Positions 24,433 to 30,400 of a stretch of DNA of 64,000 nt are shown here, in pieces. The stretch lies in the NCBI RefSeq assembly GCF_988243305.1, contig NZ_OZ547136.1; one strand, given 5' to 3'. The position numbers are program-made. Each line of letters begins with the position of its first letter. The first letter of the stretch is position 1.

Positions 24433-27400
24433 TCATCCCCCAAAGAAACGTCACGATATTTGGTATTTTCAAAATTCAAAAAGAAAACCCGCAGAGTGGC
24501 AACAGAGATTAAAAAGTTTGAGAAACGCGATCTGGCACAGGCGGTGATTGGTGTTGGAGTGATGGTAGATTTTATCAGCCGGATAATGTCGGTTCTGGCT
24601 GATAGCTGGGGTTGTTGGTGTGGTCTTCCTATTGATGAAAAAACAAGCAATTACTTGGCATATTATCTGTAACACTTTAAAACCGTTAAGAAGATCACAA
24701 TTCATTATGTTTATTATTGTCTGGCCGGAGGGATATTTGTTAAAAAGTGCGCTGTGTGGTGAATCCCCCTGTGCGGTGGGGCGACTGGTGTACATAGCAT
24801 TTATTATGTTATGAGCGAAGCCTACGCGGGTTCAGTGACACCGACTGAATTCACCGGGAGGCACCCGGCACCATGCAACAGACGCAAGTTAGGCTAAGCC
24901 TTATACCCCTGTAAGTTTTTTACAGGGGTTTTTTGTGCACAGAAAACCCCCAGCTAGGCTGTAATGCCGATCAGTTAAGGATCAGTTGACCGATCCAGTG
25001 GCTGTGTAAGAATCCGGAAACGCTCACTTGTTTCCGGATTTTTTTATGCACATTGGACAGGCTCTTGATCTGGTATCCCGTTACGATTCTCTGCGTAACC
25101 CACTGACTTCTCTGGGGGATTACCTCGACCCCGAACTCATCTCTCGTTGCCTTGCCGAATCAGGTACTGTAACGCTACGCAAGCGCCGTCTTCCCCTCGA
25201 AATGATGGTCTGGTGTATTGTTGGCATGGCGCTTGAGCGTAAAGAACCTCTTCACCAGATTGTGAATCGCCTGGACATCATGCTGCCGGGCAATCGCCCC
25301 TTCGTTGCCCCCAGTGCCGTTATTCAGGCCCGCCAGCGCCTGGGAAGTGAGGCTGTCCGCCGCGTGTTCACGAAAACAGCGCAGCTCTGGCATAACGCCA
25401 CGCCGCATCCGCACTGGTGCGGCCTGACCCTGCTGGCCATCGATGGTGTGTTCTGGCGCACACCGGATACACCAGAGAACGATGCAGCCTTCCCCCGCCA
25501 GACACATGCCGGGAACCCGGCGCTCTACCCGCAGGTCAAAATGGTCTGCCAGATGGAACTGACCAGCCATCTGCTGACGGCTGCAGCCTTCGGCACGATG
25601 AAGAACAGCGAAAATGAGCTTGCTGAGCAACTTATAGAACAAACCGGCGATAACACTCTGACGTTAATGGATAAAGGTTATTACTCACTGGGACTGTTAA
25701 ATGCCTGGAGCCTGGCGGGAGAACACCGCCACTGGATGATACCTCTCAGAAAGGGAGCGCAATATGAAGAGATCAGAAAACTGGGTAAAGGCGATCATCT
25801 GGTGAAGCTGAAAACCAGCCCGCAGGCACGAAAAAAGTGGCCGGGACTGGGAAATGAAGTGACAGCCCGCCTGCTGACCGTGACGCGCAAAGGAAAAGTC
25901 TGCCATCTGCTGACGTCGATGACGGACGCCATGCGCTTCCCCGGAGGAGAAATGGCGGATCTGTACAGTCATCGCTGGGAAATCGAACTGGGATACAGGG
26001 AGATAAAACAGACGATGCAACTGAGCAGGCTGACGCTGAGAAGTAAAAAACCGGAGCTTGTGGAGCAAGAGCTGTGGGGTGTCTTACTGGCTTATAATCT
26101 GGTGAGATATCAGATGATTAAAATGGCGGAACTGAACCGCCCCGGGAATCCTGGAGACTAAACTTCCTGAGAAAGAGGTAAACAGGATGACTAAAAATAC
26201 TCGTTTTTCCCCCGAAGTCCGTCAACGGGCAGTCCGTATGGTTCTGGAAAGTCAGAGCGAATATGACTCACAATGGGCGACAATTTGTTCCATTGCTCCA
26301 AAGATTGGCTGTACGCCGGAGACTCTGCGTGTCTGGGTTCGCCAGCATGAGCGGGATACCGGGGGCGGTGATGGAGGGCTCACCACCGCTGAACGTCAGC
26401 GTCTGAAAGAGCTGGAACGTGAAAATCGTGAACTGCGCCGCAGTAACGATATCCTTCGCCAGGCTTCCGCTTATTTTGCGAAGGCGGAGTTCGACCGCCT
26501 CTGGAAAAAATGATGCCACTGCTGGATAAGCTGCGTGAGCAGTACGGGGTCGGACCGCTATGCAGCGAACTGCATATTGCCCCGTCAACGTATTACCACT
26601 GTCAGCAACAGCGACATCATCCGGATAAACGCAGTGCCCGTGCGCAGCGCGATGACTGGCTGAAGAAAGAGATACAGCGCGTATACGATGAAAATCACAA
26701 GGTATACGGTGTGCGTAAAGTCTGGCGTCAGTTGTTACGGGAAGGTATCAGAGTGGCCAGATGCACTGTGGCACGTCTCATGGCGGTTATGGGACTTGCC
26801 GGTGTTCTCCGGGGTAAAAAGGTCCGTACGACCATCAGCCGGAAAGCCGTTGCCGCAGGCGACCGCGTAAACCGTCAGTTCGTGGCAGAACGACCTGACC
26901 AGCTGTGGGTGGCTGATTTTACTTACGTCAGCACATGGCGGGGCTTCGTCTATGTGGCGTTCATCATTGATGTGTTTGCCGGATACATCGTGGGGTGGCG
27001 GGTCTCATCGTCCATGGAAACGACATTCGTGCTGGATGCACTGGAGCAGGCGTTATGGGCCCGTCGACCGTCCGGCACGGTCCATCACAGTGATAAAGGT
27101 TCTCAGTATGTATCGCTGGCCTACACACAGCGGCTTAAGGAAGCCGGATTACTGGCATCAACAGGAAGTACAGGCGACTCGTATGACAACGCGATGGCGG
27201 AGAGCATCAATGGTCTTTACAAAGCGGAGGTAATACACCGTAAGAGCTGGAAAAACCGTGCAGAAGTGGAACTGGCCACACTCACGTGGGTGGACTGGTA
27301 TAACAATCGACGATTGCTGGAAAGGCTGGGCCATACTCCTCCGGCAGAAGCAGAAAAAGCTTATTATGCTTCCATCGGAAACGATGATCTGGCAGCCTGA

Positions 27401-30400
27401 GTTCACAGATAAAACACTCTCCAGGAAACCCGGGGCGGTTCAGAACATCTGAAAGGTTACTGGCCGAATCAACTGAGTTTCTCAGAATCATGTGGAATGG
27501 TGATGAGAATGCTGATGACATTGCAGGGCGCTTCACCGGGACGTATACCGGAGCTGATGCGCGATCTTGCAAGTATGGGACAACTTGTGAAATTACCGAC
27601 AAGAAGGGAAAGGGCCTTCCCGAGAGTGGTAAAGGAGAGGCCCTGGAAATACCCCACAGCCCCGAAAAAGAGCCAGTCAGTTGCTTAACTGACTGGCATT
27701 ACAGCTAGGCTGGGGGTTCCGGAAAGCTTTCAGCTTTGAGCCAGTTATTAAAACCCCTTTTGATTTGTTAAAACACCTTGCGGTCTGGCAACTGCAAGAG
27801 TCAAACAAGAAATCAAAAGGGGTTCAAATGGGGAACGAAAAGAGCTTAGCGCACACCCGATGGAACTGTAAATATCACATAGTTTTTGCGCCAAAATACC
27901 GAAGACAGGTGTTCTACAGAGAGAAGCGTAGAGCAACAGGCAGTATTTTGAGAAAGCTGTGTGAGTGGAAAAGTGTACGGATTCTGGAAGCTGAATGCTG
28001 TGCAGATCATATCCATATGCTTGTGGAGATCCCGCCCAAAATGAGCGTATCCGGCTTTATGGGATATCTGAAAGGGAAAAGCAGTCTGATGCTTTACGAG
28101 CAGTTTGGTGATTTGAAATTCAAATACAGGAACAGGGAGTTCTGGTGCAGGGGGGACTACGTCGATACAGTGGGTAAGAACACGGCGAAGATACAGGATT
28201 ACATAAAGCACCAGCTTGAAGAGGATAAAATGGGAGAGCAGTTATCGATTCCCTGTCCGGGCAGCCCGTTTACGGACCGTAAGTAACGAAGTTGGATGCA
28301 AATGTCAGATCGTGTGCGCCTGTTAGGGCGCGGCTGGTAAGAGAGCCTTATAGGCGCATTTGAAAAACCTCCGGCTATGCCGGAGGATATTTATTGCACG
28401 TCGTCAATTGCGGCGTGCTGGCTCTTCCATTGATATCTGCTGGATTAAATCGTCTGGCATATGTTCCTGTAAAATACGCCAGAGGTTCTCGGCGGTTCTA
28501 TTCAGTCGGGTGTTCATTCGGTAAATATAAGCCTGAATGGGGACTGTCAATTTAGCAGCATCAAGGCATATCAGACGTTTGGTCTGTAGTTCATCGACGA
28601 TCGACCAGATCGGTAACCAGGCAATGCCGTATCCGTTGAGCGCCATATTCTTTAATAACTCGCTCATCGAAGAGATAAATATCGTGCGCCCGGTAATACC
28701 TCCAACCTCTGCCAGATGACGATTGACCAACCTGCCCATATAAGATGTGGCGGTATAGTTGAGCAAAGGAACCTGGGGCTGAGTGATATCGAATACAGGG
28801 TGCCCCTGTGCGTCGGCGGCACATACCGGGTACAACTCAGATTCAAACAGTTTCAGGCAGCAAAAAGGCGATTGCATAAGATCTTCATCGCGAAACGAAA
28901 TAATAAAGTCACTCTTGCCTTCGCGTAACGTATTTACGGCCTGGACAACATCAATGGCTTCAACATGATAGACAAATTCTCCGCCATAGGCGGTAAGTGA
29001 ATGCACCAGTTTGGGTAATACGCTCAGGGATAGTGAGTGCGCGGCTGCAATTTTAATGTTGGGAACGCCGAGTAAACTCTGGCCGTTTAACTCCCCCAAA
29101 TTGCATTCAAGCTGCTGTAATAAGCTGCGAGTCTGGGAATGAAAGAGCTTGCCCTCTTCGGTTAATTGTAAAGGGGTGGTCGTGCGATCGAATAAAACAA
29201 CGCCGATCGCTGCCTCCAGCGCCTTAATTCGTCGGCTGAATGCGGGTTGCGAAAGATTACGCTCTTTTGCCGCCTGAGAAAAATGGCGACAGGCTTCCAG
29301 TGTCAGGAAATCGTATAACCATTTTGTCTCGATATTCTTCATTACCATGGCACCTGTATTTTCAATCCAAAGACATAATAAAACATCCCGGCAATAAAAA
29401 TAATGTTCTCAATTAGCACAACCTGGCCTTTATCATTCGTTTTGTGCATAACCCCTTCATTTCCGGTATTGACGTTGATATCACATTTCGCCAAAAAAAC
29501 GAAATTTTTCCGTCAGATAACCAGAATACATCATCACTATGGTGAATAAGCGGAATGTTCCATAGCTGCATCATGCGTGTCTTGCATCGCCTTGTACAAC
29601 CTTGCATTTCTCATCGCCCATTTCGACTGTTAAAAAAGAGAGCAGCAGTTATTTACCGCGTATTGTCATTAACGTTTTGAGAGGCAGGTATTGTGAAAGG
29701 TTTAATTGGTGTACTCGGTGGAATGGGGCCGGCAGCTACCGTCGACCTGTTTAATAAATTTGTAACTTTTACCGCTGCACAATGTGATCAGGAACATATT
29801 CCTTTAATTATTTCTTCGATCCCGGATATTCCTGACCGTACCGATGCATTAATGCATCATGGGCGTTCACCATTACCCGTTATGCGTGATTATATGCATA
29901 AGCTGGAAGATGCCGGGGCAGAATGTATTGTTATTCCCTGTAATACCGCGCATTACTGGTTCAAAGAATTAAAAGATGCTTGTCATATTGATATATTAAG
30001 TATCGTAGAAACTACGAACAATGAAGTTCGCGCCTGTGGTAAAACCCGAATTGGCTTGTTAGCCACCAATGCCACGCTATATATGGGTTTATACCAAAAA
30101 GGAATTGAGTCGCTGGGATTTACCTGTGTCAGCCCCGATGCCGACGGTCAGAAAAAAGTGATGGAAAGTATTTATTCCTTGAAAGCTGGCAATATAGCGC
30201 ACGCACAAAAGTTGATGAATGAGCAGGCTGAAATATTATTTTCCCGCGGTGCAGAAATCCTTGTTCTTGGTTGTACAGAAATTCCGGTTATTCTGGCGCA
30301 AGCCGTTAAAGAGCAGCCTTCCCGCTATATTGACTCAACGGCGTCACTCGTTCGTGCCGGAATAAAATGGTACGAAAATCGTGTCGGTAAACATTATCTT

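Follow-up and report, generated by a model that had tools for sequence, protein, structure and literature searches.

Nested IS629, IS4 and IS200 at the hypT locus of Escherichia coli: evidence for three successive insertions and a recurrent IS4 target

A three-level nest beside hypT

A stretch of 64,000 nucleotides from contig NZ_OZ547136.1 (RefSeq assembly GCF_988243305.1), hereafter the window, includes an Escherichia coli chromosomal locus adjacent to hypT in which three insertion sequences (ISs) lie one inside the other: IS629 (26133-27442) within IS4 (24962-27701) within IS200 (~24934-28395; Table 1). We conclude, with a probability of roughly 0.93, that this locus is the record of three successive and independent transpositions, first of IS200, then of IS4, and then of IS629. 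The initial annotation had proposed a three-level nest at ~24900-28400, which is borne out by the target duplications, the termini of the elements, and the in silico excision of IS629 and IS4. Its label "IS200-like" for the outermost element named the right family but was too loose, as the element is IS200 itself (IS200C-type).

The transposase gene of IS4 is split by IS629, as had been noticed, with GAAC on both sides. Removing IS629 together with one GAAC (1310+4 bp) gives an IS4 of 1426 bp with an uninterrupted 448-codon frame, and because this excision restores a perfect IS4, exactly 4 bp were duplicated by IS629. The 11-bp duplication reported for IS4 is likewise exact: CAGCTAGGCTG abuts both IS4 termini, and for two junctions fixed beforehand an exact match of 11 nt has a chance of ~2e-7. 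Removing IS4 and one 11-mer gives an 810-bp sequence of IS200 with its flanks. Both reconstructions, which the initial annotation had proposed to align with reference elements, were compared with annotated genomic copies. The reconstructed IS4 is identical at 1426 of 1426 positions to the intact copy at the same locus of E. coli CRE389, which is annotated as "IS4-like element IS4 family transposase" and served as the IS4 reference. The reconstructed IS200 is 100% identical to both parts of the CRE389 locus, and it matches genomes with an intact hypT-adjacent IS200 at 99.9% in one uninterrupted piece.

The duplications had been said to make the order of insertion unambiguous. The order itself holds, but duplications and nesting alone do not suffice for it; it follows from natural intermediates that exist at the locus. 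IS200 is uninterrupted at the hypT locus in E. coli genomes (e.g., in one locus examined). In 133 of 5,426 complete genomes, the hypT locus holds IS200::IS4 in which IS4 is intact and both the left flank and the duplication are those of the window. Over window positions 20000-33000, CRE389 is colinear with the window (100% identity over segments of 4,356 bp and 1,884 bp and 99.93% over a segment of 3,000 bp), and the sole structural difference is the position of IS629. In CRE389 and nine similar genomes, which are the closest relatives, IS629 is located at the 5' end of hypT and not in IS4 (CRE389 locus 6312-9891). The CRE389 copy at hypT itself contains a group II intron (ltrA), which is a further nested mobile element at this locus.

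IS200 and the hypT flank occur together in 201 of the 5,426 complete genomes, which cover at least 80% of a query that joins the left flank, with its STnc100-like small RNA (sRNA) gene, to the hypT flank. Among the 25 matches listed, none is an empty site in which the STnc100 flank is directly joined to the hypT flank, and the two full-length matches to the joined-flank query among those listed both carry IS200 between the flanks. One hypT locus that seemed to be free of IS200 was rejected, as it does contain IS200, upstream of which a different element has inserted.

The triple nest was found in this window only and in no other E. coli complete genome; the IS4/IS629 junction was not found in the GTDB species-representative genomes, nor was the truncated IS4 protein, in three start-codon versions, found in the gene-position index. 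Five matches elsewhere apparently spanned IS4 and IS629, but in both cases inspected these were merely neighbouring elements. Judged from these comparisons, the IS629 insertion step is recent and private. The locus thus offers a clean relative time line, with IS200 at hypT widespread, the IS4 insertion common to 133 genomes, and the IS629 insertion recent and private.

All components are already known and ~100% identical to annotated copies, and the nest as such is ordinary. It shares with other nests in IS-rich Escherichia and Shigella the insertion of element into element and the intact duplications that record the order; it differs in that the middle step is non-random, given the preference of IS4 for one IS200 hairpin. 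Nests of known ISs being routine in IS-rich Escherichia, this one has little importance alone, and its use lies in lineage markers and annotation tests.

Table 1. Features of the nested locus and its flanks, in window coordinates
Feature	Position	Strand	Remarks
STnc100-like sRNA gene	24724-24938	+	Rfam RF02076, 139 bits, full-length match
STnc100-like terminator	hairpin 24906-24928, T-run 24929-24934	+	hairpin CCCCTGTAAGTTTTTTACAGGGG; not part of IS200
IS200 left segment (nt 1-28)	24934-24961	+	left half of the nt 12-34 hairpin; from alignment of six IS200C copies
IS4 target duplication, copy 1	24951-24961		CAGCTAGGCTG; IS200 nt 18-28, central 11 nt of the hairpin
IS4 left part (nt 1-1171)	24962-26132	+	100% identical to intact CRE389 IS4
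IS4 inverted repeats	24962-24979 (left), 27684-27701 (right)		18 bp, imperfect
IS629 target duplication, copy 1	26129-26132		GAAC
IS629, complete	26133-27442	+	1310 bp; from inverted repeats, open reading frames, Rfam, and NCBIfam
IS629 inverted repeats	26133-26157 and 27418-27442		TGAACCGCCCCGGG...; ends TGAAC...GTTCA
IS629 orfA	26187-26513	+	intact
IS629 frameshift pseudoknot	26468-26584	+	Rfam ALIL, 120 bits
IS629 orfB	26510-27400	+	intact; overlaps orfA
IS629 target duplication, copy 2	27443-27446		GAAC
IS4 right part (nt 1172-1426)	27447-27701	+	displaced C-terminal 80 transposase residues
IS4 target duplication, copy 2	27702-27712		CAGCTAGGCTG
IS200 right segment (nt 29-711)	27713-28395	+	right half of the left-end hairpin, to 27718
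IS200 tnpA 5' untranslated region stem-loop	27747-27829	+	sequesters the ribosome-binding site
IS200 art200 antisense sRNA (predicted)	27748-27837	-	90 nt; published coordinates mapped onto the window
IS200 tnpA	27828-28286	+	152 amino acids, intact; HUH motif (HIH) at 61-63, Y125
IS200 right-end hairpin	28368-28386	+	
IS200 right terminus	28395		...TTTATT; shared sequence of the copies ends ...GGATATTTATT
hypT	28404-29348	-	NCBIfam NF007488, 407 bits

IS4 bisects the left-end hairpin of IS200

The ends of IS200 were fixed in an alignment of six copies, namely the one in the window and five of the IS200C type from unrelated plasmid settings; copies at other loci were used because no empty site was among the matches listed. 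This alignment does not agree with the left-end terminator hairpin that the initial annotation had assigned to IS200 at 24906-24935: the six copies share sequence only from the T-run 24930-24934 onward, within which the left boundary remains ambiguous. The hairpin to the left of IS200 differs in every copy aligned, and the candidate at 24906-24928 was rejected as a part of IS200. It was also rejected as IS200 nt 12-34, as this would place the tnpA start codon ~40 nt further from the left end than allowed by the published coordinates, which give the hairpin at nt 12-34, a stem-loop that sequesters the ribosome-binding site (RBS) at nt 69-138, and the start of the antisense sRNA art200 at nt 153/154 (PMC4513863). 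The published numbering fits the reconstruction only with nt 1 at ~24934, which makes the 23-nt palindrome AACCCCCAGCTAGGCTGGGGGTT the hairpin of nt 12-34. In the reconstructed IS200, the hairpin then maps to nt 12-34, the stem-loop to nt 66-141, and the tnpA ATG to nt 144, in agreement with the published architecture.

IS4 had been placed between the IS200 hairpin and tnpA; instead, it lies inside the true hairpin AACCCCCAGCTAGGCTGGGGGTT and bisects it. The duplicated 11 bp are the centre of the hairpin (IS200 nt 18-28), symmetric about the loop. The Rfam STnc490 match carries a trace of the insertion: in its first helix, IS4 sequence takes the place of the 5' arm, and the base pairs are marked non-canonical.

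The hairpin at 24906-24928 belongs to the terminator of the STnc100-like sRNA gene (terminator-like scan match 24905-24929; DNA fold -9.9 kcal/mol, z = -4.4). A hairpin just left of an IS200 thus belongs to the host and is easily mistaken, which is a lesson for annotation. The terminator hairpin of the STnc100-like gene differs in sequence from the STnc100 family consensus, and IS200 follows it directly. In O157 and O111 strains, a genome carries several diverged STnc100-like sequences (76-81% identity), with six to nine matches in each record.

Each of the six aligned IS200C copies has a different GC-rich hairpin and Ts to its left, and seven of the eight IS200C copies examined are located directly after a different GC-rich hairpin and T-run, examples being the glcA, mlaA, and STnc100-like terminators. 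That IS200C sits just downstream of rho-independent terminators points to a targeting of terminator T-tracts. A survey reported terminator-like sequences immediately upstream of ISs, most strongly for IS200/IS605 (bioRxiv 10.1101/2025.07.22.666184).

The IS200 hairpin is a recurrent target of IS4

At 100% identity, the forward left junction (IS200 nt 1-28 plus IS4) is present in 362 of the 5,426 complete E. coli genomes, compared with 133 at hypT. IS200::IS4 with the same site and CAGCTAGGCTG is found, in the orientation seen in the window, after the glcA terminator (171 genomes) and after an Rpn-family gene (7 genomes), and in the opposite orientation after the mlaA terminator. On plasmids it also occurs in the opposite orientation, seen as a junction match only. 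IS4 therefore occupies the same 11-bp target in IS200 copies of at least four chromosomal loci and in both orientations. Such independent insertions make the left-end hairpin of IS200 an IS4 hot spot, as far as genome comparison can tell.

Three other IS4 sites were examined, of which two are apexes of terminator hairpins and one is not a hairpin; the duplications at the two hairpin sites are 12 bp. An early IS4 insertion is said to have been mapped in the pheST attenuator, likewise a terminator hairpin. For some elements of the IS4 subgroup, a family review describes "spectacular apparent insertion specificity" with strong specificity of the target arms (PMC2266710). With IS200 placed after terminators and IS4 at the apexes of terminator-like hairpins, the nesting becomes predictable rather than accidental.

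The odds seem to us evenly balanced that IS4 prefers IS200 nt 12-34 in either orientation as a "safe harbour" that aids its persistence, with each insertion permanently disabling the IS200 concerned. If true, an old and nearly immobile IS200 would be a harmless refuge for IS4. No prior description of IS4 inside IS200 was found in a shallow literature search, and the recurrent, orientation-independent targeting of the IS200 hairpin is the only, mildly new point of this analysis.

A separate observation concerns the glcA locus of E. coli 23AR0303, which has the left junction common to the 171 genomes. There the IS4-bearing IS200 retains only ~14 codons of tnpA and is fused to a truncated gspK, which looks like a deletion beside the nested elements.

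Proposed mechanism and consequences

In the proposed sequence of events, IS200 would have integrated by the single-strand "peel and paste" route of its Y1/HUH TnpA, right after the STnc100-like T-tract and without a duplication. IS4, which has a DDE transposase, would then have entered the IS200 left-end hairpin (nt 12-34) at its apex, with staggered cuts symmetric about the dyad and duplication of the central 11 bp; an attraction of IS4 to GC-rich, terminator-like hairpins would make the IS200 hairpin a recurrent target. Finally, IS629, a member of the IS3 family, would have entered the IS4 transposase gene after codon 368 and duplicated GAAC.

According to two reports, TnpA of the IS200/IS605 family recognises subterminal structures (PMC5027513, PMC6006769). 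In IS200, the DNA fold gives -11.7 kcal/mol for the left-end hairpin when intact and -10.0 kcal/mol for the right-end hairpin, and the two are homologous (AAAACC[C/T]CC[A/G]GCTA[G/T]GC[T/C]GG[G/A]GG, with two compensatory base-pair changes), in keeping with such structures. The halves of the left-end hairpin separated by IS4 reach -2.2 and -2.7 kcal/mol, values that shuffled sequences also reach. The IS200 of the window is probably immobilised, because the left-end hairpin putatively recognised by TnpA is split and its halves no longer fold.

The hairpin has also been described as shielding tnpA from outside transcription (PMC4513863). With this shield destroyed and all three transposase genes in the same direction, read-through into tnpA is possible. 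The tnpA open reading frame (ORF), the RBS stem-loop, and the art200 region are all unaltered on the right-hand side of IS4, and translation should still be blocked.

Weighing the alternatives

Nesting and intact duplications, taken alone, are also compatible with another order, in which IS629 entered an IS4 elsewhere and the resulting IS4::IS629 was carried into IS200 by transposase that another copy supplied, and the intact IS4 ends fit such a transfer. We nevertheless consider it extremely improbable, as an intact IS4 with the same duplication occupies exactly the same site in 133 genomes, including CRE389 with flanks 100% identical to the window, and the IS4/IS629 junction was found at no other place in the E. 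coli complete genomes or the GTDB representatives. Hardly any credence is due either to an assembly artefact, i.e., IS copies wrongly joined into a false nest. Three identical IS629 copies, the usual cause of misassembly, are present in the window, to which the triple nest is unique; yet a misjoin would not yield a 4-bp duplication whose excision restores a perfect 1426-bp IS4, and both outer levels are seen in many independent complete genomes. An alternative that bears on the hot spot only is that IS200::IS4 owes its spread not to hairpin targeting but to composite transposition or to recombination of one IS200 copy with another. The identical junctions at several loci speak for such spread, which we nonetheless regard as unlikely: merely 28 nt of IS200 lie left of IS4 and provide very little homology for recombination, the site holds IS4 in either orientation, the sequences of the IS200 copies are not the same (GGGGTCCCAATG versus GGGGTTCAAATG), and for composite transposition IS200::IS4 is without a foldable left-end hairpin.

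We thus prefer three successive transpositions in the order IS200, IS4, IS629, and several points weigh against this account or its consequences. The triple nest was found in no other genome and rests on one assembly. The nt 12-34 hairpin is a putative TnpA binding site, by the family paradigm and its likeness to the right-end hairpin, and the immobility of IS200::IS4 is a prediction. The same applies to the inactivity of the truncated IS4 transposase, in which the truncation falls just past the conserved core (the NCBIfam model ends at residue 363).

The three elements compared with known relatives

IS200 in the window resembles other IS200C-type members of the IS200/IS605 family in its length of ~711 bp, the lack of repeats and duplication, the nt 12-34 hairpin, the RBS stem-loop, art200/STnc490, and the TnpA of 152 amino acids; it differs in that its left-end hairpin is split by the 2.75 kb of IS4::IS629. 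The Salmonella IS200 is quoted as 707 bp, and the copy in the window is a few bp longer. Its flanks, GGGGTTTTT before the left end and GCACGTCG after the right end, are unrelated, and hence there are neither terminal inverted repeats nor a target duplication. The tnpA with an RBS-sequestering stem-loop, proposed in the initial annotation, could be corroborated by the intact ORF, the predicted RNA fold (-43.7 kcal/mol, z = -4.4 versus shuffles), and Rfam STnc490 (120 bits). TnpA matches the IS200/IS605 family model NCBIfam NF033573 (141.6 bits versus a cut-off of 55), and it retains Y125, the residue whose mutation to F gives a catalytically dead TnpA (PMC4513863). The sRNA art200 is complementary to the first three tnpA codons (PMC4513863); its region, as mapped, lies entirely to the right of the IS4 insertion and is predicted to be untouched.

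The right end of IS200 is 8 bp from the stop codon of hypT. The right-end hairpin, read on the minus strand (28386-28368), is followed by TTTTT, lies ~18 bp past the hypT stop, and is a terminator-like scan match. IS200 may now supply the hypT terminator.

IS4 (annotated as insG in E. coli) is matched by the window copy in the 1426 bp after excision, the 18-bp repeats, the 11-bp duplication, and the YREK motif, and the window copy differs by the IS629 interruption after codon 368 of 448. The termini are TAATGCC...GGCATTA, with TAATGCCGATCAGTTAAG on the left and TAATGCCAGTCAGTTAAG on the right (also written ...CTTAACTGACTGGCATTA). The duplication of 11 bp lies within the family range of 11-13 bp, about one helical turn, and it is 12 bp at the three other IS4 sites. 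The transposase ORF starts at 25028, is cut after codon 368, and runs into IS629 to a stop at 26161. When reconstructed, the transposase matches the IS4 family model NCBIfam NF033592 (304 bits versus a cut-off of 115), and the Y(2)R(3)E(6)K motif of the single DDE transposase (residues 313-327) is retained in the cut ORF. With the last 80 residues lost, the IS4 copy in the window probably cannot transpose autonomously, but transposase from another copy could use its ends, which are intact. A 377-amino acid ORF with filamentous-haemagglutinin-type repeats at 37052-38185 equals the truncated IS4 ORF in length by coincidence and is unrelated to it.

IS629 is fully like known members of the IS3 family, from which it shows no difference: it has 1310 bp, orfA and orfB, a predicted -1 frameshift region, the ALIL pseudoknot, and a duplication in the range of 3-4 bp. 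The inverted repeats at its ends agree at 23 of 25 positions (92%; repeat finder), and orfB matches the NCBIfam IS3 family model with 314.6 bits. At 1310 of 1310 positions, the nested copy agrees with two others in the window and with an IS3-family element annotated elsewhere, and it is 100% identical over 795 bp to an annotated IS629-family fragment in CRE389. The nested IS629 is intact and probably active. The two further complete copies are located at 6165-7474 and, in reverse, at 52633-53942, and they have their own duplications (TAC and TAAC/AAC, respectively). In addition, the window contains a partial IS3-type copy that is 95% identical to IS629 (45132-46171) and an IS629 end fragment of 259 bp (57365-57623). 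The copy number and identity indicate a recent IS629 expansion in the source strain.

Other elements in the window

Upstream of the nest lies an IS100 of the IS21 family (~22000-24320), whose istA frame stops early (ORF 22451-22993 only) and whose istB is intact (23470-24252); in CRE389, istA of IS100 is annotated with an internal stop. Just past the right end of IS100, an 89-bp stretch (24319-24407) repeats an internal IS100 segment with 97.8% identity. Weak Rfam matches to Ysr202 (28363-28395) and to a tRNA (22195-22262, with no ARAGORN support) were dismissed. A further Rfam match, to the IS102 sRNA, is located at 59935-60171 (72.5 bits).

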